DNA from: a phage
Length of the DNA: 64,000 nt
Strand: one strand, 5' to 3'
Sequence record: PV730300.1
Shown here: positions 5,284-50,939 of the stretch, one piece after another
How positions within the stretch are numbered: position 1 is the first letter of the stretch
How the letters are laid out: the number at the start of each line of letters is the position of its first letter
Position numbers and translations under genes: made by a program
The notes under the pieces: generated by a model
Seen by the model: only the letters and a program-made list of their open reading frames with translations
The model's database searches: none
What the model was told of the DNA's origin: nothing

Positions 5284-5342
5284 AAATGTCTGTATGATGG
5301 TTTGCATACCGCGCATAACAGATAGCCAATGAGGAGATTGAA

Positions 5343-5552: not shown

Positions 5553-5775
5553 CATGAAACGCATGAAAATTCGTATTGAGAATGATGGTGGTTATAAAGG
5601 ACTTATCCATGCAAAATTTCCACTTGTGTTGGAAGCTACGGTGGAATACAGTGGGCTTGCTCATGTGCGATTCTCGAAGATGATGGAAGTGCAGGAGTGG
5701 TTTTGGGACGAGATAGATGCACGAGAAGGGGAAGATTATGTTTTCTTTCCTCACGAATATGAAATTGTCTATTAA
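5545..5775 (+). CDS. hypothetical protein; paralog of 8886..9107 (shared EWFxxExxxxEGxDYVFF C-terminus)
   Basis: ORF track; C-terminal similarity to 8886 ORF. Confidence 0.5.
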   Translation: MHNMKRMKIRIENDGGYKGLIHAKFPLVLEATVEYSGLAHVRFSKMMEVQEWFWDEIDAREGEDYVFFPHEYEIVY

Positions 5776-5778
5776 AGG

Positions 5779-6027
5779 TTGTGTGCAATGATCACACCAC
5801 AACAGAATGAAGCAGCAATGGATCTTCTTGATAGTTTGTATTTCGATAATTGGTACTCTGAATGTGAATGGATGAATATGCAAACTCTGAAAGAGAAAAC
5901 AGAAGCGTTGATTACAGTAGATCAATTTCTTGCAGAGACGGAAAGAATGAACTATGATATGGCATCTCGCGCACGACGCGTTTCCATTTTCAATAAAATG
6001 TTAGCATTATGGGGAGGTAGAAAATGA
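5779..6027 (+). CDS. hypothetical protein
   Basis: ORF track. Confidence 0.45.
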   Translation: MCAMITPQQNEAAMDLLDSLYFDNWYSECEWMNMQTLKEKTEALITVDQFLAETERMNYDMASRARRVSIFNKMLALWGGRK

Positions 6028-6485
6028 GACAATTCACTATACTGGCAGCTTATGTGCAATGTGTTCACGATTATGTTAGTGCTCATATAGGTTTGCTGGA
6101 AGTTAATAGTAAAATTGAAGGCAATGTGGGTACTGTCTATGTGCAACATACTTTATCTATCGTGCCGTTTAAAGTGTTCAGTGTTGTAGCTGCCGATTAC
6201 AATCGTGTAGATGTGTGTTTCTTGGATCATAATTTTCGTAACGCACTAGATAATATCGAAGATTATCTTCCCGTGAAACCTTTGTCATTTCCACCGAGTC
6301 GTGCAAATAATGTAGTGACAAACCTTAATGAAAGGAATGTGGCTATGCACAAAAAAGTCCGTCAACTGAAAATGCTGATGGAAATGCAAGAAGAGATTGA
6401 AAAAGAACTGAAAGAAGATTTTGGTATGCTTCCAAAAGACGCTTTGAAATGGTATGATGAACTAGGAAGAGAAAGTTATGAATAA
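6024..6485 (+). CDS. hypothetical protein (153 aa)
   Basis: ORF track; ATGA overlap. Confidence 0.5.
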   Translation: MRQFTILAAYVQCVHDYVSAHIGLLEVNSKIEGNVGTVYVQHTLSIVPFKVFSVVAADYNRVDVCFLDHNFRNALDNIEDYLPVKPLSFPPSRANNVVTNLNERNVAMHKKVRQLKMLMEMQEEIEKELKEDFGMLPKDALKWYDELGRESYE

Positions 6486-17957: not shown

Positions 17958-18390
17958 AGAAAAAGAAGTAATCACGGTAATCCGTCAGATGGAAGGTGCC
18001 GAAAACAATGCTTTTGTTACTAAGATTCTTCTTAACATCTTTGAAGATGTTATTTTAAACAATCCTGGTCATAAAGATTATCAGTATGATGTTATGATGG
18101 GTGCTTTGCTTGAAATTAACAAAAACACTTTTGCTGAATATGAGCAACACATGCTTTTACCAGAGGAAGATCAGGATTATTTGTTATCTGGTGCTTTAAG
18201 TGCACAAGAAAATTTCTACCACGTTCTTAATATGGCTTATGCAGATGAACTTGCTGTTTCCCTTGAAGAGCGGATTCAAATGGTTCGTGACGTAATGAAT
18301 GAACAAATCCAAGAAGTTGAAGATCTGGTAGCAGAGCCTTTAGCAGAAATTCGTGCAGCTATTGAAAAACAAAAAGGAACTCAATCATGA
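17941..18390 (+). CDS. hypothetical protein (149 aa)
   Basis: ORF track. Confidence 0.5.
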   Translation: MSQNAKEKEVITVIRQMEGAENNAFVTKILLNIFEDVILNNPGHKDYQYDVMMGALLEINKNTFAEYEQHMLLPEEDQDYLLSGALSAQENFYHVLNMAYADELAVSLEERIQMVRDVMNEQIQEVEDLVAEPLAEIRAAIEKQKGTQS

Positions 18391-18554
18391 TGCAAGTAGG
18401 TGATGTTGTTTGTCTTAAAGGTGCAAACAAACAAATGACAGTAATAGAAAGTTATGGTGAATCTTGTAAAGTAACTTGGTTTGATGAAAACGGGGAGTTG
18501 CAACACGCTATATTCGATCAAAAAGCTTTGAGGAAGGTTGAAGAAAAAGAATGA
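18387..18554 (+). CDS. hypothetical small protein (55 aa)
   Basis: Own translation; overlaps stop of upstream gene; below track cutoff. Confidence 0.3.
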   Translation: MMQVGDVVCLKGANKQMTVIESYGESCKVTWFDENGELQHAIFDQKALRKVEEKE

Positions 18555-18814
18555 GCCATCCGTCAATATTTTTCTGTTTTGTAGATCTTGAAAACGAGTC
18601 TTTAATCGTTGATAGTGAGGGTTACTTCACTTATTGGGAATCCGAGCACGAAACTATAAGTGTAGTGAAAGAAATTATGCAAACCAATCCAAACCTACCA
18701 GCGCATAAGTACGGTATTGCAAAAGTGTTTGTTACTAAAACAGAGTACACAAAAGAGCGAAGCACTTTGTACCATAATATTGAAGTGATTCACTATTTCA
18801 AAGATGTTATTTAG
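18551..18814 (+). CDS. hypothetical protein
   Basis: ORF track. Confidence 0.45.
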   Translation: MSHPSIFFCFVDLENESLIVDSEGYFTYWESEHETISVVKEIMQTNPNLPAHKYGIAKVFVTKTEYTKERSTLYHNIEVIHYFKDVI

Positions 18815-18822
18815 GAGGTTAT

Positions 18823-19431
18823 ATGGAAGAGAAGATTTGGGATGGTAAAGATCCTTTAGAAGTTGGACACGTAGCGCGTGTCAAAAAATCTACTACAGGT
18901 CCTGGTTTTTCTGGTTTGTATCATATACCAGAAGAAGGTCAGCACGTTACAATTTTGGCTCGTGACAAACAAAACGGAGCAACGCCTGTGTGGATTGTTC
19001 GTTGGTATGACAAAGATCTTAACATTTGCTTGTCACCTATTATGGCTCATTTGCTGGAAGCCCCTTGCTCTGAAGAAGCTCTAATTTTTGTTTCGGCTTT
19101 TCAGAAAGCCACAGGTTTAACATTAGATGTAAAAGATGTGCAAAAAGCACTTGACATTATTGAGGAAGACAACGATACTACATCTAACGACGAACTGGTT
19201 GAAGTTACAATATTATCTTCAGCAGATATCCGAGAGATTGAGAATTGTGATTTTCCAATCACATTTAAAATGTCGCAGAAAGACATACAGTCATCTGGAA
19301 GTTGTTTTGGCATACCTCGTTGGTTTTTTGATTCTATCAAAAATTCTACTACAGAGGGATCAGACTATGATCAAGATGACATGCTTTGGTTCTTAAAAAA
19401 CCGAGAGATTGTTCTCTCACCACTTAAGTAA
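18823..19431 (+). CDS. hypothetical protein (202 aa)
   Basis: ORF track; RBS AGGAGG. Confidence 0.5.
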   Translation: MEEKIWDGKDPLEVGHVARVKKSTTGPGFSGLYHIPEEGQHVTILARDKQNGATPVWIVRWYDKDLNICLSPIMAHLLEAPCSEEALIFVSAFQKATGLTLDVKDVQKALDIIEEDNDTTSNDELVEVTILSSADIREIENCDFPITFKMSQKDIQSSGSCFGIPRWFFDSIKNSTTEGSDYDQDDMLWFLKNREIVLSPLK

Positions 19432-19549
19432 GGAGAAATAATGGTTTCATTTATCGTAGGTGTAGTTGTAGGCTATCTTATTAACAAATATCAAGACGTT
19501 ATTACGGCAAAAGTAAAAGACATTTTAGACTCATCTAAATAATCTATCA

Positions 19550-19580
19550 AAGCTGCATCTTCAATAGGTGCAGCCTTTTA
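19550..19580 (+). terminator. rho-independent terminator-like hairpin (GCTGCA...TGCAGC + TTTT)
   Basis: Inverted repeat followed by T-run. Confidence 0.4.
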
Positions 19581-19594
19581 AAAGGAGATATGGC

Positions 19595-19768
19595 ATGACT
19601 AAACGCACTGATTTTAAATGTATGCATTGTGGGAAATCTTTTGGGGATCATCAAGCTCGCACATTCAACTGTCCACGTAAAGGTCGCGGAAATTTTAAAG
19701 GTTTTAATCCCGCACATGTTTATTCTCCAGATTACGATAAGCCAGAAGAAGAAAAATTTGTTATTTAA
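19595..19768 (+). CDS. hypothetical zinc-finger protein
   Basis: Track ORF 19568..19768; ATG at 19595 after AAAGGAGAT; CxxC...C motif. Confidence 0.45.
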   Translation: MTKRTDFKCMHCGKSFGDHQARTFNCPRKGRGNFKGFNPAHVYSPDYDKPEEEKFVI

Positions 19769-19780
19769 TAAGGAGGTCAT

Positions 19781-20062
19781 ATGGAACTCGTTCAAGAATT
19801 GTATAATGCTTTAGGAGCAAAAGGAAAAGATTGGCCCGAACATGCGCTTATTGCTATAAGAGACTCCGATGGTGAGATTAAGTTTTCAAGCGTAAGTAAA
19901 GAGCACATCGTAGAAACAAAACTGGGTATTTACATGCGTGGAACTTATTGCTTATTCAACACCAGAATGGTAGAAGCCCCTGTTATCGAGGATGGAACAA
20001 AAGGTTGCCCCACAATCGTAACAAAATCCGAATATGAGAAGTTTTTCTACGCTAAGGCTTGA
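19781..20062 (+). CDS. hypothetical protein
   Basis: ORF track; RBS AAGGAGG. Confidence 0.5.
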   Translation: MELVQELYNALGAKGKDWPEHALIAIRDSDGEIKFSSVSKEHIVETKLGIYMRGTYCLFNTRMVEAPVIEDGTKGCPTIVTKSEYEKFFYAKA

Positions 20063-20107
20063 CACAGAAACAATACTATAGGATAGTGATCCTATCGTAG
20101 CAATAGA

Positions 20108-20131
20108 ACCCGCTTCGGCGGGTTTTTTCAT
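20108..20131 (+). terminator. rho-independent terminator (ACCCGC-TTCG-GCGGGT + TTTTTT)
   Basis: Seen directly; tetraloop hairpin plus T-run. Confidence 0.6.
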
Positions 20132-20153
20132 ATCTGTAGCAATAGGAGGTCGT

Positions 20154-20384
20154 GTGTTAAATAAAATCGAAGAAGGTTGTATGGCATTTTTGGTAGATAA
20201 CCCGTTTCCCTTTATGGTTAAGGTCCATGTAGGAGAGTATTTAGGTTATGACGAATGGGATTGTAGTATCAATAGTGAAATGCACCACTACCAACCAACA
20301 ATACTTAAGACGGATCAAATGGCGCGTATTACAGTAGAGGATGAATTGATCATTGAGTTATACGAGAGAGCACTACACAAGTAA
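20154..20384 (+). CDS. hypothetical protein
   Basis: ORF track (GTG start); last gene of rightward block. Confidence 0.4.
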   Translation: MLNKIEEGCMAFLVDNPFPFMVKVHVGEYLGYDEWDCSINSEMHHYQPTILKTDQMARITVEDELIIELYERALHK

Positions 20385-20426
20385 GCTAGAACCCACCTAA
20401 ATCGAACAGAGACGCTCTAAAATAGA

Positions 20427-20455
20427 AAAGGCACCCACTTGGGTGCCTTTGTTTT
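20427..20455. terminator. bidirectional terminator at convergence of rightward and leftward blocks
   Basis: GGCACCC-ACTT-GGGTGCC hairpin flanked by T-runs on both strands. Confidence 0.55.
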
Positions 20456-20726
20456 ATTCTTCGTTAGATTGCGTCTCAGACGCGTTAAATTCGGTTTCAG
20501 TACAACTTGCTAGGTAACTTATATTTTGCATCACTACAACTACAGGTGTTTGAAGTTTATCTTCTAGCCCCGCAGCCACTTGAGCCAAGGCATTATCAAT
20601 ATTTGATTTCCTAACGCCTGTTCCATGTCCTGTTGCCAAGTAAAGATTACCTTCCCCTTTTTGCGTAGCATTAGCAAAGTAGTAAACGTAATGTGCAAGG
20701 TAGTAATCACGGATTTCTTCAGTCAT
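20454..20726 (-). CDS. hypothetical protein (90 aa), last gene of Sir2 operon
   Basis: ORF track; RBS AGGAGAATAAA. Confidence 0.5.
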   Translation of the reverse strand: MTEEIRDYYLAHYVYYFANATQKGEGNLYLATGHGTGVRKSNIDNALAQVAAGLEDKLQTPVVVVMQNISYLASCTETEFNASETQSNEE

Positions 20727-20746
20727 TTTATTCTCCTAATAAGAAA

Positions 20747-20760
20747 GGGGCCGAAGCCCC
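20747..20760 (-). other. conserved intercistronic hairpin GGGGCCGAAGCCCC (copy 1 of 3)
   Basis: Identical 14-nt palindromic hairpin also at 32853 and 37139. Confidence 0.5.
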
Positions 20761-20769
20761 TTGAGTGGT

Positions 20770-21585
20770 TTATTTGTTTAAGTGGTCTTCGACCATTTTA
20801 ATGAAACCTTCATTGCTGAAGGCTGTTGCAGCTTTTTCTCGGTAAACAAAAACTCCACGATCTTCATAGAGAAGTGTTTCTTCGTAATTAACTCCAGGGT
20901 TAACTACAACCATTTTTGTACCCATACTAAGCGCAGGGAATAATTCCCAATTAAAATTGATAACTTGGTTTGAACATCCTACTACTACAACCAAATCTTG
21001 CATGGTCAAAGTATCGAACAAGTGAGCCATATCTGCATACAAAGGTGCAGCCTCACCAAAAAATACAACATTAGGCTTCACCCAGTTATAATCATCTATG
21101 TTTATACTATTGTAACCAATATCTACCAGTGTTTTGTAATCTCCAGGATGCATACGGTAAACTACTTCAGGGAGATATCCGTGCACGTGAATAACAGAAT
21201 CTCTGTCTACACCTGCTCGCTCTAGTAGATCATCAACGTTTGTTGTCAAGTTTACTATTTGGTTAGGATATTCCTTAAACCATTTTGCTATTTGAATATG
21301 TGCAGCATTAGGTTGTACATCTTTAAGTTCAACACGCCTTTTGTTATAAAATTCGTGTGTTTTGGCATACAAATCCATACCGTTCTCGTCTACACCACCG
21401 ACCACCGGAAGATCTGGAGATGTTCTAACACGATAACCTGCCTGGAAAGCTCCAATATCGCAGACCTCTTCTAAATCATATTCTTCCCATAAGGCACGAC
21501 CACTATCGGTGTCTGTTCGGAATGTTCTAATCCCACTATCTGCACTTAAACCTGCACCGCTTACAAAAATCACTCGTCTTGGCAT
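20770..21585 (-). CDS. Sir2-family (sirtuin-like, NAD-binding) protein lacking the zinc ribbon
   Basis: GAGLSADSGIRTFR, NVDDLLERAG, HVHG, VVVVGCS motifs; no CxxC pairs; RBS GAGGAGG. Confidence 0.7.
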   Translation of the reverse strand: MPRRVIFVSGAGLSADSGIRTFRTDTDSGRALWEEYDLEEVCDIGAFQAGYRVRTSPDLPVVGGVDENGMDLYAKTHEFYNKRRVELKDVQPNAAHIQIAKWFKEYPNQIVNLTTNVDDLLERAGVDRDSVIHVHGYLPEVVYRMHPGDYKTLVDIGYNSINIDDYNWVKPNVVFFGEAAPLYADMAHLFDTLTMQDLVVVVGCSNQVINFNWELFPALSMGTKMVVVNPGVNYEETLLYEDRGVFVYREKAATAFSNEGFIKMVEDHLNK

Positions 21586-22073
21586 TCTTCCTCCTCATAA
21601 TCATCATAATCTTCGTCATCCAAATCGTACACTTCATCTTGAGAATAACTCACTTCAAAGTAAATATCAAACTCCGCAAACAAACGTAGAATGTTGGACA
21701 TGCTATAATAAGTATCGTAGGCAGATTCAGCTTCATAGTAAACATAAAGCAAATGGTTAGCCTTATCATCTTCCAAATATTTCCCGTCTGCATACGCATA
21801 GTCTGCATATGCTTTACCTGCATCTTCCACAAGAGAACGATCAAGCAGAGTAGGAAACGGTTTCTCTTTTTCTTTTAGTTTGCTCACCAACCAGTGTGCA
21901 ATATCATGCCAATCTGCATCCTCTCCGCTGAAGCAGCTTGCAACTTCGCCAAACTTGGCATCTCCTAAGTCCCCGCTGATAGTGATCATGGTTGAACTAT
22001 TGTAACCACAAGTTTCGCAATTTGAACAACTGTTGTGCACATGAATTTCTACTTGAAACATATTTCCTCCCAT
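21570..22073 (-). CDS. hypothetical protein with N-terminal Cys cluster and polyacidic C-terminal tail
   Basis: ORF track; CSNCETCG; C-terminus DLDDEDYDDYEEEECQDE. Confidence 0.5.
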   Translation of the reverse strand: MGGNMFQVEIHVHNSCSNCETCGYNSSTMITISGDLGDAKFGEVASCFSGEDADWHDIAHWLVSKLKEKEKPFPTLLDRSLVEDAGKAYADYAYADGKYLEDDKANHLLYVYYEAESAYDTYYSMSNILRLFAEFDIYFEVSYSQDEVYDLDDEDYDDYEEEECQDE

Positions 22074-22119
22074 AAAAGAAAAGCCCCCTGAAACAGGAGG
22101 CTTTGTTCAGATGCTGGCA

Positions 22120-22773
22120 CTATACCAGACTTTGTAGGTATTTGTCAAGGGCTTCTTGATCTCCTTGACAAACATAGCAACGGAAGTCTTGAGCCGAAGG
22201 TTGTTTATTTTCATCCCAGTCCCAATAAACATTACCCTTATAACGTGAACCAGGAAACTCAAAAGAGGCTGTATGTGTAATGTATCCTGGGCCACCAGTG
22301 AAATCACAGAATGAGAATTGGGGGTATGCCGCCTTTACTGCCTCAATAAACCAAGCTTTACGATCTAAAGCTTCATTGATGCTATATGCATGTCTCTCCA
22401 TTTCTTCCCACGTTTTCCAGACACTTCTTTCATCAGGAGAAAAGACAAGCCATTCTGGAAGGTAGAGAGTGTCATAGTAATCATCATATTCGATCTCGGA
22501 GGCGCACGAAGCTGACTCCTCCAGTTTTGAGTAATCAAAAGCAGAATATACCCACCAACCATCTTCCAGTAAGGCTTTGACAGGGACGAAGCCTTTATCA
22601 GCATATTGATCGAATTGTTTGACACGGTGGCTTGTGCAGTCTTCAAACTCACATTCTAAACGATATGCACCTTTTCGACGAGCCTCAAGACCGTGTGTAC
22701 TGAAAATAACAACACTTCCTTCACCATCATTACGATCTACTTGATAAGCAACTACTGGTTTTGAATTTGACAT
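22120..22773 (-). CDS. hypothetical protein (217 aa)
   Basis: ORF track. Confidence 0.5.
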   Translation of the reverse strand: MSNSKPVVAYQVDRNDGEGSVVIFSTHGLEARRKGAYRLECEFEDCTSHRVKQFDQYADKGFVPVKALLEDGWWVYSAFDYSKLEESASCASEIEYDDYYDTLYLPEWLVFSPDERSVWKTWEEMERHAYSINEALDRKAWFIEAVKAAYPQFSFCDFTGGPGYITHTASFEFPGSRYKGNVYWDWDENKQPSAQDFRCYVCQGDQEALDKYLQSLV

Positions 22774-23456
22774 TATTTCTCCTTATCTAGAAGATTGTTA
22801 GACAAAAACACGGCACGAGCAAAACCACGAGCGGTTAGGGATCTAAGTTGTTTTGTTTTTGCACTAGCTCCACCTAAGCTTTTCCAACCCCAGAAGCAGC
22901 CTATATGATCTACTGGTTTCTTCACTGGTTGAACAAAACCATTGCCGTGCCAAATACAAGTTTTCTTTGTATACCCATCACGGGTAGGCATTTTAGGATG
23001 AAAGCTTCCTTCCTCTTCAAACAAATACCCACCATATTCATAAGGATCAAAGTAAAAATCGGGTTTACGCCATAAGGTTGAAAGTTTACCTACTGGGTTC
23101 TCAATCATCCAAGGAACATTATATTTGTTACCCAAAGCTTCCACTACACGAATATTAGCTAAAGCTTCATCTAATTCCTCTGTGCTACGTTCGTGTTTGC
23201 TACCACTACCTGCTAACATAGTGCAAGGTGGAAATCCAAAAATAATATCGGGTTTAGGTATCCCATGATCTTCAGGGTTGAATGTAGAATCTATCCAGGC
23301 ATTCACATAGGTTATGTTTGGGTGCTCCATCCTAACCTCGTATTTACCGTGGTCCCCTTCGTCAGCGTTCACACAAAAACACTTGTGACCTGCTTCGGCA
23401 TAACGTAACACCATGATCCCAGATCCGTCAAACATAGACAAAACTGTTTTACTCAT
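22773..23456 (-). CDS. cytosine-C5 methyltransferase-like protein (compact, no target-recognition domain)
   Basis: LSMFDGSG (motif I-like), FGFPPCT (PC motif IV-like), IENPVG (ENV-like motif VI); ATG at 23456 after GGAGGGG. Confidence 0.5.
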   Translation of the reverse strand: MSKTVLSMFDGSGIMVLRYAEAGHKCFCVNADEGDHGKYEVRMEHPNITYVNAWIDSTFNPEDHGIPKPDIIFGFPPCTMLAGSGSKHERSTEELDEALANIRVVEALGNKYNVPWMIENPVGKLSTLWRKPDFYFDPYEYGGYLFEEEGSFHPKMPTRDGYTKKTCIWHGNGFVQPVKKPVDHIGCFWGWKSLGGASAKTKQLRSLTARGFARAVFLSNNLLDKEK

Positions 23457-23862
23457 TACCCCTCCATTTAAGACAAGCCATAACTTTACGCCAATCACTT
23501 TCTGTAAGAAAAATCTCGTTTGCTTTCTTCCACAAATCTAAATCGTGAAGGGTTGGAATACGATATGTTAGTTCACAGAATCTATGCTCTTCTTCTGTAA
23601 TATAACCAAAATGCAGAGCCACATCGTGAAACCAACACCAACCATGCATCTCTCGAACAACATGGTCATGCTGAGACATTGTTTTATGCCGTAAACCTAA
23701 CCAACAAGGAACAGATACTTTAGTAGTCTTTAATCTGTGATTAACAGTATTAGAGTATTCAATAATAGCTGTCAGTTTCAATCGTGCTTTTTCTAAATCC
23801 TCATGGGTCACTTTGAAATAACTTTCTGAAAGATATCCACACATATTAATAACCTCCTTCAA
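23449..23862 (-). CDS. hypothetical His-rich protein
   Basis: ORF track. Confidence 0.45.
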   Translation of the reverse strand: MKEVINMCGYLSESYFKVTHEDLEKARLKLTAIIEYSNTVNHRLKTTKVSVPCWLGLRHKTMSQHDHVVREMHGWCWFHDVALHFGYITEEEHRFCELTYRIPTLHDLDLWKKANEIFLTESDWRKVMACLKWRGNE

Positions 23863-24787
23863 AAGGCTTAACTACATGTTGATTAGCTTTAAAACGTTCA
23901 ACATAGTCGTTTTCACCCATGTTTTCATATAGCTTAGTAACAACATAAAAGTTTTCCCAAGCATACTCCCTAAACCAACCACTAGTGATGGATGTGCAGA
24001 CTTTAGATAAAGCCATTATAAAACTTTGCTTAGGGGTTGGACCTCCGATCTCTCCACCGAAAGGAATTTGTGAACGTTCCAAAGCCAAAACACACGCTTC
24101 TTCATAAACACCTAATAGGCGCACATGTTTTGGTTGAGCAAAAAACTTTTCTTTGCTGGTCATAACTTCACTTCCATCTTTCATATAAGATTTATATGCT
24201 GGAGCATCCATTACCGCGATTGCTTCATGGATAGAATCATGATCATAAACATACGGAACCTCATCACCTTTAAAGAAGTCTTTACTTTTTACGTTTAAGT
24301 TTGGATGAGAGTAAGTGTATGTTTCTTTCTCACGCAACTCATAAATACTCTTAAGATTTTCTGGGATCTTTGCGCCCAGTGACCGCATGAAATGAATATC
24401 TTTCATAGTTTTAAAGAAGTGAGGACTATCCTTTTTAAAACGATGACTCATTTTAAGAAGGTAGAGCACATCTAAAGGAGCAACAACATGTCCAGCGTAA
24501 GTTCGACGAACATCCTCAGAATCTTCACAATAACTAATCAAAGCTTCTGTGCTATCTCCTTGAGAAGCAATATCGTATTCCAAATGTGCACCAGCTATCA
24601 TTTTGACATGGCCTTTGTTCCCTTTACGTTCTACAAGTTCAACAAACTCATCTTGAGAGAACATTTTTGATAATTCTTCCCACTCTTGTTCTGTACACAG
24701 GTAATCTAAATCTACACAAGGGCGATACAAGTCTTTTCCCATGTCCATAGCATGAATTTGCAATGCACGGCTACCAATTAACACCAT
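23846..24787 (-). CDS. putative nucleotidyltransferase-fold protein
   Basis: N-terminal IGSRA...VDLDYL resembles GS...DxD NTase signature; tentative. Confidence 0.35.
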   Translation of the reverse strand: MVLIGSRALQIHAMDMGKDLYRPCVDLDYLCTEQEWEELSKMFSQDEFVELVERKGNKGHVKMIAGAHLEYDIASQGDSTEALISYCEDSEDVRRTYAGHVVAPLDVLYLLKMSHRFKKDSPHFFKTMKDIHFMRSLGAKIPENLKSIYELREKETYTYSHPNLNVKSKDFFKGDEVPYVYDHDSIHEAIAVMDAPAYKSYMKDGSEVMTSKEKFFAQPKHVRLLGVYEEACVLALERSQIPFGGEIGGPTPKQSFIMALSKVCTSITSGWFREYAWENFYVVTKLYENMGENDYVERFKANQHVVKPFEGGY

Positions 24788-24851
24788 AATATTTCTCCTC
24801 TATTGGTTGATAGGTTAAGTTTATCAAGCTTCCAGATTCCTGTCAATAAAA

Positions 24852-24872
24852 AACCCGCCGAAGCGGGTTATT
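24852..24872 (-). terminator. rho-independent terminator (ACCCGC-TTCG-GCGGGT + T-run)
   Basis: Same hairpin sequence as 20108 terminator, here oriented for the minus strand. Confidence 0.5.
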
Positions 24873-24877
24873 ATTTA

Positions 24878-25150
24878 CTAACACATTGAGGAAGAAGAGA
24901 TCCAAACACCTCTTGTGGTTAAACCATTTTCATCCAACTCTACACCATAATCTTCACAAATGAAATCAATATAGTGATCTGCGGCTGACGTTCCTGTAGG
25001 GTAATAAGTTTCTCCGTTACCGTAGTCACCTATCCAAGCTTGTTCCTGAAACTGTTCACAAAGTTCTTCAATCTCCTTACGAAACTTTCTTTGTGCTTGT
25101 TCCATCTCTTTAACTTTCTTTTTTATCAGCAGTTCGCCTTCAGACTCCAC
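24878..25150 (-). CDS. small acidic protein, W-x-SSS-C C-terminal family (member 1)
   Basis: C-terminus GVWISSSSMC; helical N-terminus. Confidence 0.5.
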   Translation of the reverse strand: MESEGELLIKKKVKEMEQAQRKFRKEIEELCEQFQEQAWIGDYGNGETYYPTGTSAADHYIDFICEDYGVELDENGLTTRGVWISSSSMC

Positions 25151-25159
25151 AATCTCTCC

Positions 25160-25378
25160 TTAACAGCTACTACTGTGCCAAACGCCTTGAGAATTAACGA
25201 CGAAACCATCATCACCTTCGCCATAACAAGAAGAGGATTGCCAATCTTCAAAACAGATTGCGTCATTTTCTAAACTAAGACCAAAACCAGCATCTTCAGC
25301 TTCTTTTGTAAGTTCGTCCACTAAAGCCATAATAGCTTGGGCTTTTTCAGTTAATTCTTCAACATTACGATCACTCAT
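25160..25378 (-). CDS. small acidic protein, W-x-SSS-C C-terminal family (member 2)
   Basis: C-terminus GVWHSSSC plus internal EDWQSSSC; start at MSDRNV (TAATG overlap). Confidence 0.5.
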   Translation of the reverse strand: MSDRNVEELTEKAQAIMALVDELTKEAEDAGFGLSLENDAICFEDWQSSSCYGEGDDGFVVNSQGVWHSSSC

Positions 25379-25692
25379 TAGTATTTCTCCTCTGGTTGGA
25401 AAACTGAACGACAAGCCCACATACTAGCTTCTTTTAAATGTTTAATAGCACAACGGATTTGATCAATACGTTCGTATGCAAGATCTAATTCTTTTTCTGT
25501 GCCGTCAAAAGACCCATGATATGCTTCACAATACTCTTCCTCTAAAGCTTTGAAGATTAAACCTAAACGCTCTTCTGCATCTTTAATAGCGTTAACCTTG
25601 CCAATCTTATCGTCAGTATGCGCCTTATAACCTTTGATATCTTCGATTCCCACTTTACCCCCTATTAACAACTTAAAGAAGATGGATGCCAA
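25378..25692 (-). CDS. hypothetical protein
   Basis: ORF track; start uncertain. Confidence 0.4.
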   Translation of the reverse strand: MASIFFKLLIGGKVGIEDIKGYKAHTDDKIGKVNAIKDAEERLGLIFKALEEEYCEAYHGSFDGTEKELDLAYERIDQIRCAIKHLKEASMWACRSVFQPEEKY

Positions 25693-25862
25693 TTTGTCCC
25701 AGTATTCTCATTTTCATCTTCTGGATCATAATAACCACCCATCCCATATTCAGGGGAGAAACGGAAACCTTTACCAGTCTCATCTGCTAACTGCTCTGCT
25801 TCCGCTAAAGCCTCATAAGCTGCTTTTACGGCTTCTTCTACTGTTTTAAACTTGGTCGTCAT
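25665..25862 (-). CDS. small acidic protein, W-x-SSS-C C-terminal family (member 3)
   Basis: C-terminus TNWHPSSLSC. Confidence 0.5.
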   Translation of the reverse strand: MTTKFKTVEEAVKAAYEALAEAEQLADETGKGFRFSPEYGMGGYYDPEDENENTGTNWHPSSLSC

Positions 25863-26136
25863 AAAATTTCTCCTCTCCTAAAGACATGTTGACATGAAAT
25901 GCACGATATGTAAATTCGTTGTCCGTTGTGTTTGAATAAAACTCAAATTGAACAACACCGTCTTGAGAAGACAGATACATGCCAATTTGAACTGTTCCTT
26001 CTGGTACCAGGTAAGCATACTCTGGACGTAGTGTTACATTGTAAAAATAAAGTTCCCCAACACCCATTTCATCCCAAGCTTCCCAAGCGGTAACGAAGTT
26101 ACTTTCAAAACTTGTTACTGATCCGAACTCTGCCAT
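25846..26136 (-). CDS. hypothetical protein
   Basis: ORF track. Confidence 0.45.
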   Translation of the reverse strand: MAEFGSVTSFESNFVTAWEAWDEMGVGELYFYNVTLRPEYAYLVPEGTVQIGMYLSSQDGVVQFEFYSNTTDNEFTYRAFHVNMSLGEEKFYDDQV

Positions 26137-26627
26137 AAAACCTCCTCAATCTTGTAGTTTGACTCCATCTCCAACACATTTCCACGAACGTCTCTCCGAA
26201 GAAAGGCATAAGCTTTATTAGGTATTGTAGACTCATATTTAACCATATCTGGCACAGCAAAAGATACTACTACTCCTGCTGGGCTTCTGTCAAGAGCCTT
26301 ATTAATATTTCTAAGGATATCGTTAGCCAAGATTTCTGCCAATTCTCCAAGAACAGTTTCGGTTATATCTTTATATCCCATTAAGTATTTGTTGATATCT
26401 TTCATCTCTGTATTGTTCAGAGTATAGTCCAAAGGATAGAAATTCAAAGCGGAGTCACTTTTATGTGTCCACATGAAATGCACCCGATCAGAGCAGAATC
26501 GTAACCCTCTGTGAAGAATATCTTCTACAACAGGGAGAATTTCTTTTGTTACATCATTAACCATGTTGTAATCTAAGATTTCTGCCAAGTTTGTTCTTTG
26601 TTCACCACGTTTACGTTTAGGAATCAC
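26115..26627 (-). CDS. hypothetical protein (170 aa)
   Basis: ORF track. Confidence 0.45.
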   Translation of the reverse strand: MIPKRKRGEQRTNLAEILDYNMVNDVTKEILPVVEDILHRGLRFCSDRVHFMWTHKSDSALNFYPLDYTLNNTEMKDINKYLMGYKDITETVLGELAEILANDILRNINKALDRSPAGVVVSFAVPDMVKYESTIPNKAYAFLRRDVRGNVLEMESNYKIEEVLWQSSDQ

Positions 26628-27198
26628 TTGTTATTGCCCTCATTACCAAAGGTCGTAGAAAATCGTAAATCTCTTGTTTTGTTTTCCCACGAATGTTTAA
26701 ACAAGGAACATTATTGGCTTTAGCTATCTTCCAAGCCGTAGCTGTTCCACCTTTTGCATCTCCATGTTTATCAGCATTAGCACAAGCCAACAAGAAACAT
26801 GATGGAGCAGGATTCTCCAAATCTCTACCTAACACTTGATGCACATTACGTTGGTGCAATTTTCTAGCACCCTGCTTAAGCTTTTCATAGGCTGGGTGAA
26901 CATCTTTGATCCATTGCACAGAGATAGCATAGTTCATTGTATCTGGTTTTGCAAGAACAATAACATCCCCTGGAATCTGATTACCTTTGAAATTTTCCCA
27001 AGGAACATAAATCTCCTTGTTAGTAGGATTTTCAGACTCTTGGACACCTGTTTCAAAAGCAGAATCACTACCCTCTGCCTTCCCAGACCTTAATTTAAAC
27101 CCAAGGTTTGAAAGCCATTTCCCTATGCCTACCATCAAAGCCCACTCTTCTTCGGATATGTCTCTACTTCCAACTCCCGTATAGAACAGTTCTGCCAT
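26617..27198 (-). CDS. DprA/Smf-like (SLOG superfamily) Rossmann-fold protein
   Basis: GVGSR...SGKAEGSDSA motif pattern; start at MAELFYTG after GAGGTG. Confidence 0.45.
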   Translation of the reverse strand: MAELFYTGVGSRDISEEEWALMVGIGKWLSNLGFKLRSGKAEGSDSAFETGVQESENPTNKEIYVPWENFKGNQIPGDVIVLAKPDTMNYAISVQWIKDVHPAYEKLKQGARKLHQRNVHQVLGRDLENPAPSCFLLACANADKHGDAKGGTATAWKIAKANNVPCLNIRGKTKQEIYDFLRPLVMRAITSDS

Positions 27199-29873: not shown

Positions 29874-30383
29874 TTAAACAAAATAAAATGGTTGAGAGAG
29901 GCCCAAACGATTCTTTGGGTCGTATACATACCAAGCGTATGCTGTCTTATCTGTTCCACCTGCAACAAACGAAGGCCGTTCTGAAAGGACTATAAGGTTT
30001 GTTGGTGGATTCTTTTGATGGAACTCTCGTCGTTTCTTTGACTCCAAGAAGCCCAACCGAAGAAGATAAATACAAACATCCGCCTCTTTTAAGCTCTTTT
30101 CCAAGAACTCCATTGCTAACTTGAATGGAGGATTTGTGATTATAATGTCGGGACGATTTTCCCATTCATGACTAAAATAATCTTTACCTTCTTCAAGTTC
30201 ACAATATTCTGAACCTTCAGGAAAATGGCGATAAATCGCTTCAGCTTCACCTCTGCAAGGTTCTGCAAAAACCCAACCTTCTTCCTTTAGATTTTTGAAA
30301 TCTATAACACTAAACAAACTATTGATTGCTTTTTGCGGTGTCGGATAATAATCGCTCGTTGGGCGATCATAATCTAATGCCAT
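29874..30383 (-). CDS. small amino-methyltransferase-like protein (NPPF motif)
   Basis: FAEPCRGEAE (motif I-like) followed by DIIITNPPF (motif IV); only 169 aa. Confidence 0.4.
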   Translation of the reverse strand: MALDYDRPTSDYYPTPQKAINSLFSVIDFKNLKEEGWVFAEPCRGEAEAIYRHFPEGSEYCELEEGKDYFSHEWENRPDIIITNPPFKLAMEFLEKSLKEADVCIYLLRLGFLESKKRREFHQKNPPTNLIVLSERPSFVAGGTDKTAYAWYVYDPKNRLGLSQPFYFV

Positions 30384-31539: not shown

Positions 31540-32042
31540 TATTCTTCCTCCTCTGTTAATGTTTTAAGAACCGCTTTCCCGCCATTCACATATTTGCAGA
31601 TGTATTCTATCGCACGTAGTGTCTCTTTGTCAACAAAAATTTGATCAGACGTTGCGAGCGGGTTATTAAGAAGATCACTGCAATCACGAACAAGCAGTGC
31701 TTTCTTATTAAACAAATTACTTAAGAACAGTAACTTCGCCTCTTCTTCTGTTATGTGCAGAAGGCTAGGATCGGAGCCAGCTATTCCTATTATACAATCA
31801 AACAAGCTTTCTTTACTATCAGAAAGTTCTTGAAAATGGTTTAAAAGCCAATCTTCTCCTAGACACCAACATTTAAACATTTCCAGTTTATCTCGGAGGG
31901 TCATATTCTCTAAAGTAAGAGCAATCTCTTTTTCAATATGGTTTACACAAATTTGACGAAATTCGTTAGGTTTTACGAGTCCCGTTTGATAGCACTCATC
32001 TATACCGCTTCTTCCGATAGCTATTGTTGCTACACCCATCAA
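31539..32042 (-). CDS. hypothetical protein (167 aa)
   Basis: ORF track. Confidence 0.45.
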   Translation of the reverse strand: MMGVATIAIGRSGIDECYQTGLVKPNEFRQICVNHIEKEIALTLENMTLRDKLEMFKCWCLGEDWLLNHFQELSDSKESLFDCIIGIAGSDPSLLHITEEEAKLLFLSNLFNKKALLVRDCSDLLNNPLATSDQIFVDKETLRAIEYICKYVNGGKAVLKTLTEEEE

Positions 32043-32074
32043 TCCTCCTTATAAATGGCTTCCCTGCCATGTTA

Positions 32075-32833
32075 TTAAATAAACACTTCAGTAATCAGTT
32101 TAGACAAACGTCCACGTTTATTATCGTCCGTTGTCAGTTCAACGTATCCAATAAAATCTACAATTGGCTCACGAACACCTTCTTCATTTTCTGGATACAA
32201 AAGTTCCAAAATTTGATGCAGACCATTACTACGTTTTTTAATTGCATATGTCTGGCGAACATCGCCTAATACAATAACATGCGTATTAATACCTGCACGT
32301 TCAATAAGAAGTTTAAGTGTTTCTGTTGACATAAGTTGTGCTTCGTCAATAATGACGATTGTATTATCCAGGGTAGCCCCTAACAAATAGTTAGGAATAT
32401 TCAATTCGATCTTACCTGATCCAATATCGTTTTCCAATTTGTTGGCTGTCATGAATTGCTGGAAAATACGTTTTGTAGATTCATAGTGTGCTGCTAGTTT
32501 ATCTGTTTTATCCCCCGACAAGAAACCAATCTGATCATCTCCGACTTCAGTAGGGTTCTTGATAAAAAGTAGTTTACGGAAGTCTCCTGAGCGAAGCATC
32601 TGCAAAGCTTTCCATAAAGCAACAGAGGTTTTACCAGTCCCTGCCGGAGCATTTACAACAGTCAGATCATTCCAAATCATGCTTTGAACAATCTTATTTT
32701 GGTCCCCTTCAGGCATAAATTCATCTAAACGGTAATCGTCATTACCTACCGCTTTTGCTGCATAACGGCTTTCAATCTTTGCTGAATTAGCCAGTTTCTG
32801 CCGTTGTGTTTTAGCTGCGGTTTTATTTCCCAT
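32075..32833 (-). CDS. phoH: PhoH-like ATPase
   Basis: NAPAGTGKT Walker A, VIIDEAQ Walker B-like; ATG at 32833 after AAAGGAG (track start 32884 overlaps lysozyme). Confidence 0.75.
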   Translation of the reverse strand: MGNKTAAKTQRQKLANSAKIESRYAAKAVGNDDYRLDEFMPEGDQNKIVQSMIWNDLTVVNAPAGTGKTSVALWKALQMLRSGDFRKLLFIKNPTEVGDDQIGFLSGDKTDKLAAHYESTKRIFQQFMTANKLENDIGSGKIELNIPNYLLGATLDNTIVIIDEAQLMSTETLKLLIERAGINTHVIVLGDVRQTYAIKKRSNGLHQILELLYPENEEGVREPIVDFIGYVELTTDDNKRGRLSKLITEVFI

Positions 32834-32850
32834 AGTAGCACTCCTTTTAG

Positions 32851-32868
32851 AAGGGGCCGAAGCCCCTT
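32851..32868 (-). other. conserved intercistronic hairpin AAGGGGCCGAAGCCCCTT (copy 2 of 3)
   Basis: Between lysozyme stop and phoH RBS. Confidence 0.5.
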
Positions 32869-32870
32869 TA

Positions 32871-33371
32871 TTAGTTGTAAGCATCTAAAGTTCCAGAAGT
32901 CAGAACTTTAATTACTCGTTCAGCACGGTTTGGCGTCTGGCTATACCATCGGCTTTTACGCATGTTTTTACCTGCTTGAGTATAATATGCATTGCTGATT
33001 AAAGTCAAGCTATTTTGAAACCCTTCAGCACCTTTTAACCCCAACTGGAAAACCATGTTGATTATTCCCAATTTACGAGTATCACTAACCTTATCATAGA
33101 TTGGTGATAAGATAGTACTGTTTTTTATGTCTCTCTTCACTTTTGCAACATCGTCAGCAAAGATTTGACGGGCTTCTTTTTCTGTGATAACTCCATTAGT
33201 CTTACGACCAAGAAGATTATCTAAGATTTGAATAGCCTTTGCTTTATCTTTTATTTTAGTCAGAAGGTGTCCTATGCCGACTGTCCAATAACCAAGATGG
33301 TCTTGATAAACAGTAAGCTTCAGTCCTTCATCGACTCGTAGCATATCAAACTCATCTACTACTTTAGCCAT
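32871..33371 (-). CDS. T4-type lysozyme (endolysin, glycoside hydrolase family 24)
   Basis: DEGLKLTVYQDHLGYWTVGIGHLLTK and RWYSQTPNRAERVI align closely to T4 lysozyme. Confidence 0.85.
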   Translation of the reverse strand: MAKVVDEFDMLRVDEGLKLTVYQDHLGYWTVGIGHLLTKIKDKAKAIQILDNLLGRKTNGVITEKEARQIFADDVAKVKRDIKNSTILSPIYDKVSDTRKLGIINMVFQLGLKGAEGFQNSLTLISNAYYTQAGKNMRKSRWYSQTPNRAERVIKVLTSGTLDAYN

Positions 33372-33533
33372 TTACTTCCTATTCGTCGTCTCCTACTCCG
33401 TGATCCAACTCGTTAAACAACAGATGTTCTGGAGAAGTTTCACGTTTTGGTTTCGTTTTCTTTATGTTGGACTTCAGCTCATTTGCCAAAGCACGAGAAA
33501 AGATCTTACGTTTCTGTTTACTTTTCATAATTG

Positions 33534-33794
33534 TTACTCCGCAATTTGAGCCATGAGATCACGCAGTTCGGTAAAACCGCCTACGTATGTTACCTCCCCG
33601 TTCACTTCAGACAGAATTTGTGGAAATGTGCGTGGAGGAACTCCGGTAAGATCAACAACTGTTTTAGTCATTGATTCTAAATCGTAGTCTTGGTCAAGAC
33701 TTAAATATTCAAACTGTTTATTGCGCATAGTCAATAGTTGTTTTGACATTTCACAAAATTGACAGTTAGGTTTACCAAAAATTACAAATTCCAT
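33534..33794 (-). CDS. glutaredoxin-like protein (NrdH/NrdC-type redoxin)
   Basis: CQFC active-site motif, about 86 aa, adjacent to RNR genes. Confidence 0.6.
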   Translation of the reverse strand: MEFVIFGKPNCQFCEMSKQLLTMRNKQFEYLSLDQDYDLESMTKTVVDLTGVPPRTFPQILSEVNGEVTYVGGFTELRDLMAQIAE

Positions 33795-34636
33795 TACCTC
33801 TCCTTATTAAGTAATACTGCTAAAGACTGTTCAATACCTTTATTTAAATCTGATTTTGTAAGATAGTGACTGGTTACTAGTTGTGACTTCACCGGACGTG
33901 CTGCTGGAGCATTATAGGTTGAAGCTGATACCGCCGATATCTTAACAGGTTCTGGCATCTGTGTCAAGATCTTTTCCGCAAACTCCGCCCAAGAAATAAG
34001 ATGGCTTCCTGCAAAATGGTAAGTCTTAACAGACCTTGACCAACCTGTTTTTAATACTTCAAAAATAGCTTCTGCTAAATCTGGAGCATATGTTGGACAA
34101 GAGAACTGATCAGCAACAATAATAAAATCACGTTGTCCATCATTATAGCGAGACAACATGGTTTTTAGAAAGTTATTTCCAAATTCGCTATATACCGAGG
34201 CTGTTCGAATAATATATGCATTTGGGTTAACTCCTCGCACCATTTTTTCACCAAGTTCTTTCGTATACCCATAATTGTTTATTGGGTTAGGTGTAGTATC
34301 TTCAAAAATAGGATGAGAATAATTAAAAATATAGTCTGTAGAAATATGCACAAAATCAATTTTAAGTTTGCTGCACACTGCCGCAATATTTGCAGGTCCA
34401 TACGCATTAACAGCCAAAGCAGTAGCAAAATCATGTTCTGCTTTATCTACAGCCGTATAAGCAGCGCAGTTAATAACACCGTCTACATAATCTTCAACAA
34501 TAGCGTTTCGCACAGCTTCAAAATTTGTAATATCTACACGTTCTTTAGGATAAATTAAAGATACGTTTGAAGGAACCACTTTACGTAAAGCTTGTCCCAG
34601 TTGTCCATTACCACCCAATACCAGATATGTTAGCAT
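33794..34636 (-). CDS. rmlD: dTDP-4-dehydrorhamnose reductase
   Basis: VLGGNGQLG, AAYTAVDKAE, STDYIF, YGYTK, NNFLKTML, DQFSCPT align to RmlD. Confidence 0.8.
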   Translation of the reverse strand: MLTYLVLGGNGQLGQALRKVVPSNVSLIYPKERVDITNFEAVRNAIVEDYVDGVINCAAYTAVDKAEHDFATALAVNAYGPANIAAVCSKLKIDFVHISTDYIFNYSHPIFEDTTPNPINNYGYTKELGEKMVRGVNPNAYIIRTASVYSEFGNNFLKTMLSRYNDGQRDFIIVADQFSCPTYAPDLAEAIFEVLKTGWSRSVKTYHFAGSHLISWAEFAEKILTQMPEPVKISAVSASTYNAPAARPVKSQLVTSHYLTKSDLNKGIEQSLAVLLNKER

Positions 34637-35196
34637 ACACCCTCACTACGCAACTGTTGAAAAGATTTAGCCATTGCATCTTTTGTTGATAAGATAGGTT
34701 TAAAACCTTCGTCAAAAATCATATCGAAGCCCCAATCGATCCCTATGTCAGGATCATCCCAACGTAAACTTTGTTCGCTAGAAGGGTCGTATGGAGTTGT
34801 GCATTTGTATTCAAAGATAGCGTCCATACTCAAAACTATAAAACCATGTGCCAAACCAGGGGGAAGCCAAAACTGCGTATGGTGTCGTGCACTAAGAACA
34901 ACACCGTCCCAAGCACCGTAAGTTGGACTATCTTTACGTAAATCTACAGCGAAATCCAATACTTCTCCACTTACACAACGAACAAGCTTACCTTGCGGGT
35001 TATTTGTTTGAAAGTGCATTCCTCGCAAAACACCGAAGTTTGATTTAGACATATTATCTTGAACGAAAGTTTGTTTACCAATGATATCTTCGTATTTTTG
35101 TTCATTGTATGTTTCTAAAAAGAAACCACGATCATCTTTATAAACGTCTGGTTTGATAATTACCGCACCTTCAATTTTTGTTTTTTCTACTTTCAT
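34630..35196 (-). CDS. rmlC: dTDP-4-dehydrorhamnose 3,5-epimerase
   Basis: DDRGFFLETYN, FVQDNMSKSNFGVLRGMHFQ, GKLVRCVSGEVLDFAVDLRK align to RmlC. Confidence 0.8.
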   Translation of the reverse strand: MKVEKTKIEGAVIIKPDVYKDDRGFFLETYNEQKYEDIIGKQTFVQDNMSKSNFGVLRGMHFQTNNPQGKLVRCVSGEVLDFAVDLRKDSPTYGAWDGVVLSARHHTQFWLPPGLAHGFIVLSMDAIFEYKCTTPYDPSSEQSLRWDDPDIGIDWGFDMIFDEGFKPILSTKDAMAKSFQQLRSEGVC

Positions 35197-50938: not shown

Positions 50939-50939
50939 A

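Follow-up and report, generated by a model that had tools for sequence, protein, structure and literature searches.

Seven leftward genes of a Phapecoctavirus, encoding a zinc-less sirtuin, a compact C5-methyltransferase-like protein and a putative nucleotidyltransferase, are likely a mosaic of independent accessory genes

We analyzed seven genes located at positions 20454-24787, on the minus strand, of a 64,000-nucleotide stretch of phage DNA (sequence record PV730300.1; hereafter, the window). The window derives from a member of the genus Phapecoctavirus (Stephanstirmvirinae), phAPEC8-like Escherichia coli myophages with genomes of around 150 kb. All seven open reading frames (ORFs) were found as predicted in the initial annotation of this DNA, and we consider them real genes because each family has homologues at the protein level in 129 to 1,488 phage records. 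According to GC skew and annotation, they form the distal, last 4.3 kb of a leftward co-directional block of approximately 34 kb (from ~20.4 to 54 kb), and the GC skew changes sign at ~20 kb, where the rightward and leftward blocks converge. The genes and the features around them are, in the direction of transcription (sizes in amino acids, aa):

24852-24869, minus strand: upstream terminator-like hairpin, AACCCGCTTCGGCGGGTT followed by a T run (-13.6 kcal/mol, z -3.3; annotated in phage Schickermooser)
24818-24846, minus strand: sigma-70-like promoter motif, TTGACA, 17-nt spacer and TAAACT, with TG (motif match only)
23846-24787, minus strand: 313-aa nucleotidyltransferase gene (DUF7277 and DUF7275)
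23449-23844, minus strand: 131-aa gene (137 aa from TTG 23862; phrog_16551)
22773-23456, minus strand: 227-aa compact C5-cytosine methyltransferase-like gene (motifs I, IV and VI)
22120-22773, minus strand: 217-aa gene (phrog_8514)
22080-22104, minus strand: internal terminator-like hairpin, 11-bp stem followed by TTTTCTTTT (-17.2 kcal/mol; annotated in Schickermooser)
21570-22061, minus strand: 163-aa gene (167 aa from ATG 22073; phrog_9509)
20770-21585, minus strand: 271-aa zinc-less Sir2 gene (PF02146, phage Sir2/CobB clade)
20745-20762, minus strand: internal terminator-like hairpin in the gap between the Sir2 and 90-aa genes (-12.7 kcal/mol, z -3.4; annotated in Schickermooser)
20454-20726, minus strand: 90-aa gene, the last of the leftward block (phrog_15991)
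20427-20450, both strands: bidirectional terminator hairpin at the convergence of the blocks (-17.5 kcal/mol, z -4.5; annotated in Schickermooser)

The initial annotation had described this region as a single operon bracketed by terminators. We recovered the seven co-directional ORFs and both outer hairpins, but two more hairpins interrupt the series, the first of them (22104-22080) between the 217-aa and 163-aa genes. Folding gave -17.2 and -12.7 kcal/mol for the internal pair and -13.6 and -17.5 kcal/mol for the outer pair, an equivalent stability, and terminator-like sites are enriched in the region, with 13 found versus 5.7 expected. Given this equal strength, the genes are likely organized not as one operon but in three transcription units: one with the 313-, 131/137-, 227- and 217-aa genes, one with the 163/167-aa and Sir2 genes, and one with the 90-aa gene. 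The TTGACA-17-TAAACT motif lies directly after the upstream terminator, 30 nt 5' of the 313-aa gene. Promoter-like sites were not enriched in the region when compared to shuffled sequence (24 found versus 23.3 expected). Of all sigma-70-like matches in the region, the best one (TTGACA-18-TATAGT with TG, 11/12; 22148-22119, minus strand) is located inside the end of the 217-aa gene and just 5' of the internal terminator, not 3' of it, an odd arrangement that may be due to chance; given that promoter-like sites are no commoner here than in shuffled sequence, we did not rely on it as an internal promoter. An Rfam scan of positions 18000-27000 found no RNA family.

Short overlaps couple three pairs of genes: the stop of the 131-aa gene and the start of the methylase gene overlap by 8 nt, base 22773 is common to the methylase stop codon and the 217-aa gene, and the 163-aa gene runs 16 nt into the Sir2 gene. 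Regarding the two ORFs with alternative starts, the 137-aa ORF probably begins at ATG 23844, with a GGAGG ribosome-binding site on its 5' side, giving a protein of 131 aa, and the 167-aa ORF probably begins at ATG 22061, also with GGAGG 5' of it, giving a protein of 163 aa.

A megablast search of positions 20300-24900 against deposited phage genomes matched 127 phage records, 64 of which cover at least 80%. The top matches (ESCO37, Schickermooser, ESCO13, anhysbys and phAPEC8_ev052) are full length, with 97-97.5% identity. Many of the matching records already carry here the annotations Sir2 (NAD-dependent deacetylase) and DNA methyltransferase/Dcm. Dozens of public phAPEC8-like genomes thus already contain the cluster together with its main annotations. 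The initial annotation did not recognize this gene combination as a described module.

In order to find out how often the genes travel together, we retrieved loci of each enzyme family from IMG/VR, together with 10 kb on either side, and used the seven proteins as queries against them. Because these are the relatives with the highest scores, co-occurrence in the families at large is probably lower than the fractions indicate. From the 80 nucleotidyltransferase loci, seven had a methylase-like gene and six a Sir2 gene nearby; from the 57 Sir2 loci, five had a nucleotidyltransferase and six a methylase-like gene; and from the 80 methylase-like loci, four had a nucleotidyltransferase and five a Sir2 gene. 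All three enzymes were present in 6/80, 5/57 and 4/80 of these loci, respectively. Every three-enzyme locus shows the Stephanstirmvirinae-like gene order, and the full-length contigs among them measure ~140-153 kb.

Gene order, the conservation of which had been proposed as a check, is thus kept within Stephanstirmvirinae-like genomes, but elsewhere the three enzymes are separate. In the rV5-like phages, the methylase gene lies by primase/helicase and DNA polymerase genes and the Sir2 gene by those of RNA ligase 1 and a phosphoesterase, far apart from each other, and 70 kb separate them in phage KB57. Of these two genes, T5-like phages have only Sir2, and Webervirus and Drexlerviridae phages only the methylase. 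Homologues of the nucleotidyltransferase in Dhakavirus, Otagovirus and Lazarusvirus are surrounded by small hypothetical early genes and have neither a methylase nor a Sir2 gene nearby. Closer to the window, phage phi92 (FR775895.2; sister genus Justusliebigvirus) has no nucleotidyltransferase and carries a different, canonical methylase. Klebsiella phage phi1_175008 keeps the nucleotidyltransferase, the methylase (65% identity), the 217-aa gene and Sir2, and lacks the 90-aa gene and the 163/167-aa gene, the latter also missing from several divergent loci. The compact methylase and Sir2 genes are at most 1.2 kb apart in all the examined Stephanstirmvirinae-like loci that have the compact methylase, including a 58-kb contig. 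Taken as a whole, the region does not behave as a single operon or a co-inherited system: internal terminators divide it, the three enzymes co-occur in 4-6 of 57-80 loci and in one lineage, and components are lost or replaced.

Regarding the Sir2 protein, it belongs to the sirtuin superfamily (PF02146, E 1.9e-22, 80.5 bits with a cut-off of 24) and matches PHROG 2162. As the initial annotation had noticed, it keeps the NAD-binding motifs and has no zinc ribbon. The motifs GAGLSxxSGIxTFR, TTN116-V-D118, H135-G, KPNVVFFGE and VVGCS are present. Across an alignment of 20 clade members, GAGLSADSGIRTFR, TTNVDD and HVHG are invariant, as are all the NAD-binding and catalytic motifs (GAGxSxxSG..FR, TTNVD, HxHG and KPNVxFFxE). 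In the alignment, the segment between HG and KPNV, where E. coli CobB carries its zinc cysteines, contains no cysteine, and these cysteines are missing in 20 out of 20 clade members too. Judging from these sequences, the loss of zinc is real and is a trait of a whole clade of phage sirtuins derived from CobB-like ones. By tblastn, the family is present in 984 phage records, comprising T5-like, rV5-like, Mydovirus, KVP40-like and jumbo phages, with identities of 50-60% in T5-like phages, 47% in rV5, 57% in KB57 (Mydovirus), 37% in Serratia phage BF and 36% in Vibrio phage nt-1 (KVP40-like). With 37-60% identity over at least 84% of its length, and no zinc cysteines, the window protein is a member of this clade, with which it shares size and retained catalytic motifs. 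The missing zinc ligand of a phage Sir2/CobB had already been reported, and a deacetylase role proposed (Skliros et al. 2016, PMC5107563).

The best NCBIfam models for the window Sir2 are those of CobB-type deacylases (NF001753, E 1.2e-30), and among solved structures the closest is E. coli CobB (1s5p, E 7.6e-19), with Sir2Af2, Sir2Tm and SIRT5 next. These class III/U enzymes are its best sequence matches and have in common with it the conserved GAGxSxxSGIxxFR, TxNxD, HG and FGE motifs; unlike them, the window protein has no zinc ribbon and carries GCSNQVINF in place of GTSxxVxP. The initial annotation had associated the lack of zinc with NADases of the Thoeris and DSR type. This association is not supported for the window protein, with its CobB-type best structures and models (E 1e-30), because none of the defence-Sir2 models of PADLOC match it, the sole match being PDC-S65 with an E of 0.017. 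Thoeris ThsA, DSR1/2, SIR2-HerA and pAgo-associated SIR2 proteins share with it the Sir2 fold and the use of NAD+, but the window Sir2 is a stand-alone 271-aa domain, without a sensor or partner domain, and is encoded by a lytic phage and not in a host defence island.

Iyer et al. (2022, PMC9503650) described 'a distinct clade' that includes most viral sirtuins, typified by those of Serratia BF, rV5, Mydo and SP15, and predicted for it a KptA-like removal of RNA 2'-phosphates, from neighbourhoods with RNA ligase, 2H, cREC, kinase, MazG, phosphoesterase, HAD and Nudix genes. The window Sir2 matches the same phages that define this clade (Serratia BF, rV5, Mydovirus and T5-like phages). We re-observed RNA-repair neighbours, a phosphoesterase and RNA ligase 1, in rV5. 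In Serratia phage BF (NC_041917.1), the Sir2 gene is flanked by genes for a cytidyltransferase, NAMPT, a short 'RNA ligase' (of the 2H type, according to PMC9503650) and a Nudix hydrolase, so that genes of NAD+ salvage as well as of RNA-end processing accompany it. No RNA-repair neighbours were found beside Sir2 in the examined T5-like phage or in the window, where, in contrast to the clade, Sir2 is not next to an RNA ligase or phosphoesterase. Its neighbours are uncharacterized proteins and the methylase, and it is preceded by the lineage-specific 163-aa protein, with a Cys motif and an acidic tail. Literature searches returned in-silico proposals only, and no experimental work, for phage sirtuins of this clade. 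An RNA-repair-type cassette is present in the same leftward block at 49601-51491 (minus strand), 28 kb upstream of Sir2, comprising a 134-aa AAA_33 kinase, a 310-aa RNA ligase of the T4 Rnl1 type and a 183-aa phosphoesterase (Metallophos_2). Positions 47731-48858 encode an ATP-dependent DNA ligase, and ten transfer RNA (tRNA) genes lie at 55970-57895 on the plus strand (two for Met and one each for Arg, Ser, Asn, Thr, Gly, Gln, Pro and Ile).

The 227-aa methyltransferase-like protein is compact and carries FxGxG, PC and ENV-like motifs, in agreement with the initial annotation: motif I is FDGSG, motif IV is FPPC78T and motif VI is E119-NPVG, with TKQLRSLT.RGFARAV at the C-terminus. FDGSG, FPxCT, ENPVG and the C-terminal TKQLRSLTPRGFARAV are invariant across the family, and so is much of the 78-residue stretch from motif VI to the C-terminal motif, which is conserved and not variable. 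With a class-I S-adenosylmethionine (SAM) fold and these motifs, the protein qualifies as a C5-cytosine methyltransferase at the level of fold. Its match to PF00145 covers residues 4-92 only and stays below the gathering score (E 0.18, 11.6 bits with a cut-off of 22), and with 227 aa versus ~330 it does not have the full architecture of that family, nor a separate target-recognition domain. PHROG 757 ('DNA methyltransferase') matches with an E of 2e-84, and the type II methylase and DruM models of PADLOC match weakly. Family members are uniformly 215-245 aa long, group in 870 clusters at 90% identity and were found in 1,488 phage records, mostly from ~50-kb siphoviruses, RB49-like and rV5-like phages.

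The best fold matches of this protein were DNMT3B (score 12.6, 186 residues aligned), a DNA C5-carboxymethyltransferase (11.8), the prophage methylase 3g7u (11.3), DNMT3A (11.0), M.HhaI (10.2) and M.HaeIII (9.9); a Dnmt2 homologue ranked below DNMT3B, the carboxymethyltransferase, 3g7u, HhaI and HaeIII. The corresponding slot of phi92 is occupied by a canonical PF00145 enzyme of 329 aa (E 3e-44; locus 3964-4953), flanked by retained homologues of the 137-aa and 217-aa proteins, and its motifs I-VI align with those of the compact protein. In rV5-like phages, the compact gene is directly next to those of primase/helicase and DNA polymerase, and it lies 1.3 kb downstream of the DNA polymerase gene in Salmonella phage SE131 (MG873442.1; Moazamivirus, a 7-11-like podovirus of 89.9 kb). 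Genomic context therefore favours DNA as the substrate, because of the canonical enzyme in the phi92 slot and the replication-gene neighbours in rV5-like phages and SE131. In summary, the protein shares motifs I, IV (PC) and VI (EN) with Dcm, M.HhaI, M.HaeIII and the DNMT3 catalytic domain, and its slot with the canonical phi92 enzyme, but differs from Dcm, HhaI and HaeIII in size, in the failed PF00145 match, in having no target-recognition domain and in its conserved segment after motif VI. Only annotation-level names were found for the compact family, and literature searches gave no paper testing its activity. Elsewhere in the window, a 169-aa ORF at 29874-30383 (minus strand) is labelled 'DNA methyltransferase' in Schickermooser (gp076), yet has no Pfam match at E <=0.001.

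The 313-aa protein is composed of DUF7277 (residues 1-87) and DUF7275 (residues 107-297) and corresponds to PHROG 2141. The GS...DxD signature that had suggested a nucleotidyltransferase-like N-terminus was borne out: in 40 homologues, G5, S6, D26, D28 and E70 are invariant, along with the motifs SPHFxKT, YDHDSxH and KVCTSITSG of the C-terminal DUF7275 half. Its structure model is confident (pLDDT 91.6, pTM 0.85), and the closest folds were MenT1 (11.8), TglT (Rv1045; 10.4), ANT(2'') (10.1), Megavirus poly(A) polymerase (9.8), LnuA (9.5) and MenT4 (9.2). On the basis of this model, the protein has a pol-beta nucleotidyltransferase fold of the MenT/AbiEii/ANT type. The helical C-terminal half of the model gave no structural match. 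At the level of sequence, we found no DUF1814/AbiEii match in Pfam, NCBIfam or PADLOC, and the family profile finds no PDB sequence. No conserved partner (antitoxin) gene was seen beside the nucleotidyltransferase in four different contexts. So, although the hG[GS]...DxD catalytic motif is common to MenT1/3/4, TglT, AbiEii (DUF1814), ANT(2'') and LnuA, the window protein differs from these enzymes in having no sequence-level match to them and no antitoxin partner, in belonging to a virus-wide family that includes giant viruses, and in a further helical domain of ~160 residues at the C-terminus (DUF7275), which has invariant motifs of its own. The family is present in 735 phage records, from Dhakavirus and other T4-like phages, Otagovirus, Acinetobacter phages and actinophages. 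MenT toxins are reported to extend or modify tRNA acceptor stems (PMC7450476, PMC10435456). No experimental work on DUF7275 or on phage MenT-like nucleotidyltransferases was found in literature searches. DUF7275 relatives also occur in giant viruses (Sylvanvirus and Satyrvirus), where they are longer (508-571 aa), and in many phages (BFVD); a BFVD fold search with the 313-aa model returned only unnamed or DUF7275 proteins.

The other four proteins (131/137, 217, 163/167 and 90 aa) gave matches only to PHROGs of unassigned function and none in Pfam, NCBIfam or PADLOC, and single-sequence searches of the PDB with the 217-, 167- and 137-aa proteins found no meaningful match. The 131-aa protein is 26% identical to its homologue in phi92, gp044. 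The 217-aa family was found in 149 phage records and the 163/167-aa family in 129, both mostly restricted to Stephanstirmvirinae (the 163/167-aa family apparently entirely). Phages of Vibrio, Pseudomonas and Xanthomonas have weak relatives of the N-terminal part of the 217-aa protein. Among the loci examined, homologues of the 90-aa protein are present only in close relatives. The 163-aa protein carries an S-x-C-E-T-C-G...A-S-C motif and a strongly acidic C-terminal tail, both kept in Phapecoctavirus, phi92 and metagenomic relatives. We considered that this Cys-motif protein could supply a zinc module in trans to Sir2. This is unlikely because most zinc-less phage sirtuins, such as those of T5-like phages, rV5 and phi1_175008, have no such neighbour.

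According to these results, we consider it likely that the seven genes are independent accessory early genes, a mosaic that common descent has kept together. The region would be the distal end of the Phapecoctavirus leftward early/middle block, with three unrelated accessory enzymes among four small lineage-specific proteins, arranged in three transcription units and kept together by inherited synteny, not by a common pathway. Several observations weigh against this interpretation. The order nucleotidyltransferase-methylase-217-aa protein-Sir2 is kept in relatives in which these proteins are only 53%, 50-64%, 33-37% and 47-51% identical, respectively, and a functional module should show such order in divergent relatives as well. 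In the unrelated phage SE131, the methylase-like gene shares 8 nt with the start of Sir2, apparently a second linkage of both genes that is independent of Stephanstirmvirinae. Four out of seven proteins have no assigned function and may play a connecting role. The window Sir2 scores 106 bits against NF001753, far below the curated equivalog cut-off of 243, and for this reason is not an ordinary CobB. In the BASEL study (PMC8594841), the methylase genes of Drexlerviridae had no simple link to restriction resistance, which weakens an anti-restriction role. Finally, our literature searches found no experimental data on the proteins of the window. As for the SE131 pair (locus 4998-6447), an adjacency also noted in another locus, the methylase homologue has 234 aa and 39.5% identity and the Sir2 homologue 49%, and a calcineurin-like Ser/Thr phosphatase is encoded 1.4 kb downstream.

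From folds, motifs, distributions and synteny, we infer the following substrates and roles. The 227-aa protein would depend on SAM and use Cys78 (in FPPC) as nucleophile and Glu119 (in ENPVG) for protonation, and its recognition region is reduced, as in DNMT3. It is reasonably likely to be an orphan DNA C5-cytosine methyltransferase that methylates phage DNA after replication, with at most a narrow protection against restriction; the lack of a simple link between methylase and restriction resistance (PMC8594841) is the reason for thinking any protective role narrow. Sir2 would most likely transfer ADP-ribose from NAD+ to a macromolecular acceptor, and not simply deplete NAD+. As to its precise activity, a KptA/Tpt1-like removal of RNA 2'-phosphates in tRNA repair, as predicted by Iyer et al. 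(2022), is our tentative first choice, lysine deacylation comes next as a possible alternative, an NADase is doubtful, and some other activity is unlikely. The 313-aa protein would be Mg2+-dependent, with G5-S6 and D26-x-D28 as catalytic residues and E70, only tentatively, as the third carboxylate. Our tentative first choice for its activity is the nucleotidylation of an RNA 3' end; the alternative is a small-molecule substrate, like those of ANT and Lnu enzymes.

Other explanations would give the region more unity. One could argue that it is a tRNA protection and repair island, in which the three enzymes act on tRNA to counter host nucleases and toxins that attack the anticodon or the acceptor end: the nucleotidyltransferase would rebuild or modify 3' ends, the methylase would place 5-methylcytosine on tRNA in the manner of DNMT2, and the sirtuin would remove 2'-phosphates like KptA. 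The closest folds of the nucleotidyltransferase are indeed MenT toxins, which are reported to act on the tRNA acceptor stem (PMC7450476, PMC10435456), an RNA-repair role has been predicted for the sirtuin clade (PMC9503650), with RNA-ligase- or phosphoesterase-type neighbours in rV5 and Serratia BF, the phage has a kinase/Rnl1/metallophosphoesterase cassette (49601-51491) and ten tRNA genes, and the methylase-like and Sir2 genes overlap in SE131. However, the best fold matches of the methylase are DNA enzymes, all of them above the Dnmt2 homologue, its slot in phi92 is occupied by a canonical DNA C5-methylase, its family is common in ~50-kb siphoviruses and sits near DNA replication genes in rV5 and SE131, the RNA-repair cassette of the window is 28 kb away from Sir2, and the three enzymes are rarely together, so we find the island improbable. 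A more restricted version, in which the compact DNMT-like enzyme and the zinc-less sirtuin are a functional pair acting on RNA, with tRNA as the most plausible target, and protect or repair it when host nucleases attack the anticodon or acceptor end, with the MenT-fold nucleotidyltransferase possibly joined to them and with the enzyme roles just given, was considered because of the SE131 overlap, the linkage within 1.2 kb and the presence of tRNA-acting proteins among the structural relatives of all three enzymes. We judge it to be similarly improbable.

The adjacency in SE131, together with the tRNA-acting structural relatives and the published RNA-repair prediction (PMC9503650), is also the reason for considering that the methylase-like protein and Sir2 work as a pair, without commitment to RNA, the other genes being bystanders. 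In such a pair, the sirtuin may, for example, regulate the methylase by deacylation or ADP-ribosylation, or both may share a DNA or RNA substrate. The 8-nt overlap in Moazamivirus SE131 and the distance of at most 1.2 kb in every examined Stephanstirmvirinae-like locus with the compact methylase would fit. Still, both genes are present but distant in rV5-like phages and KB57, T5-like phages have Sir2 only, Webervirus and Drexlerviridae have the methylase only, the Sir2 of phi92 goes with a different, canonical methylase, and a linkage in two of about four lineages that have both genes is within chance. This pairing is, in our opinion, very unlikely. The least probable of these explanations is the one put forward in the initial annotation, a single NAD-linked nucleic-acid modification or counter-defence system with Sir2 acting as a Thoeris/DSR-like NADase or a nucleic-acid ADP-ribosyltransferase along with the methylase-like and nucleotidyltransferase proteins. 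Tight packing of co-directional genes with three translational overlaps, the gene order kept within Stephanstirmvirinae-like genomes and a Sir2 without zinc module are consistent with it, but two strong internal terminators set the methylase unit apart from the Sir2 unit, no defence-type Sir2 model matches while CobB-type ones do (E 1e-30), components are individually lost or swapped in sister genera, and each enzyme mostly occurs without the others. Besides, a phage-encoded bulk NADase would presumably hurt the replication of its own phage. The one-system reading of the operon fails on the internal terminators that split the cluster and on the lack of co-conservation outside one subfamily. 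To a large extent, Sir2 is placed with CobB-type enzymes and the genes are not co-conserved, both of which that annotation had named as evidence against its proposal; it had also named a standard full-length Dcm-type enzyme, and the 227-aa protein is not one.

Under the mosaic interpretation, the value of this region lies not in a new system but in three abundant phage enzyme families of predicted function, for which the E. coli phages of this genus would be a convenient model. These are the zinc-less sirtuins (~1,000 phage records, including T5-like phages), the 215-245-aa C5-methyltransferase-like family, with almost no target-recognition region (~1,500), and the DUF7277/DUF7275 nucleotidyltransferases, common to T4-like phages and giant viruses, with a predicted fold closest to that of the tRNA-modifying MenT toxins.

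Some of the GenBank records that carry the region at E. coli-phage-like identity (MG065645, MG065650, MG065656, MG065672 and others) are labelled 'Campylobacter phage' (host C. jejuni), and in B15, which bears the same label, Sir2 is 98% identical to that of the window. These records are probably mislabelled or contaminant E. coli phages. In its leftward block, the Schickermooser record (31787-35065) has an annotated sugar-nucleotide pathway of the dTDP-rhamnose type (RmlA, RmlB, RmlC and RmlD-like), and a putative dTDP glycosylation machinery is mentioned for phi92-like phages in the BASEL paper (PMC8594841).

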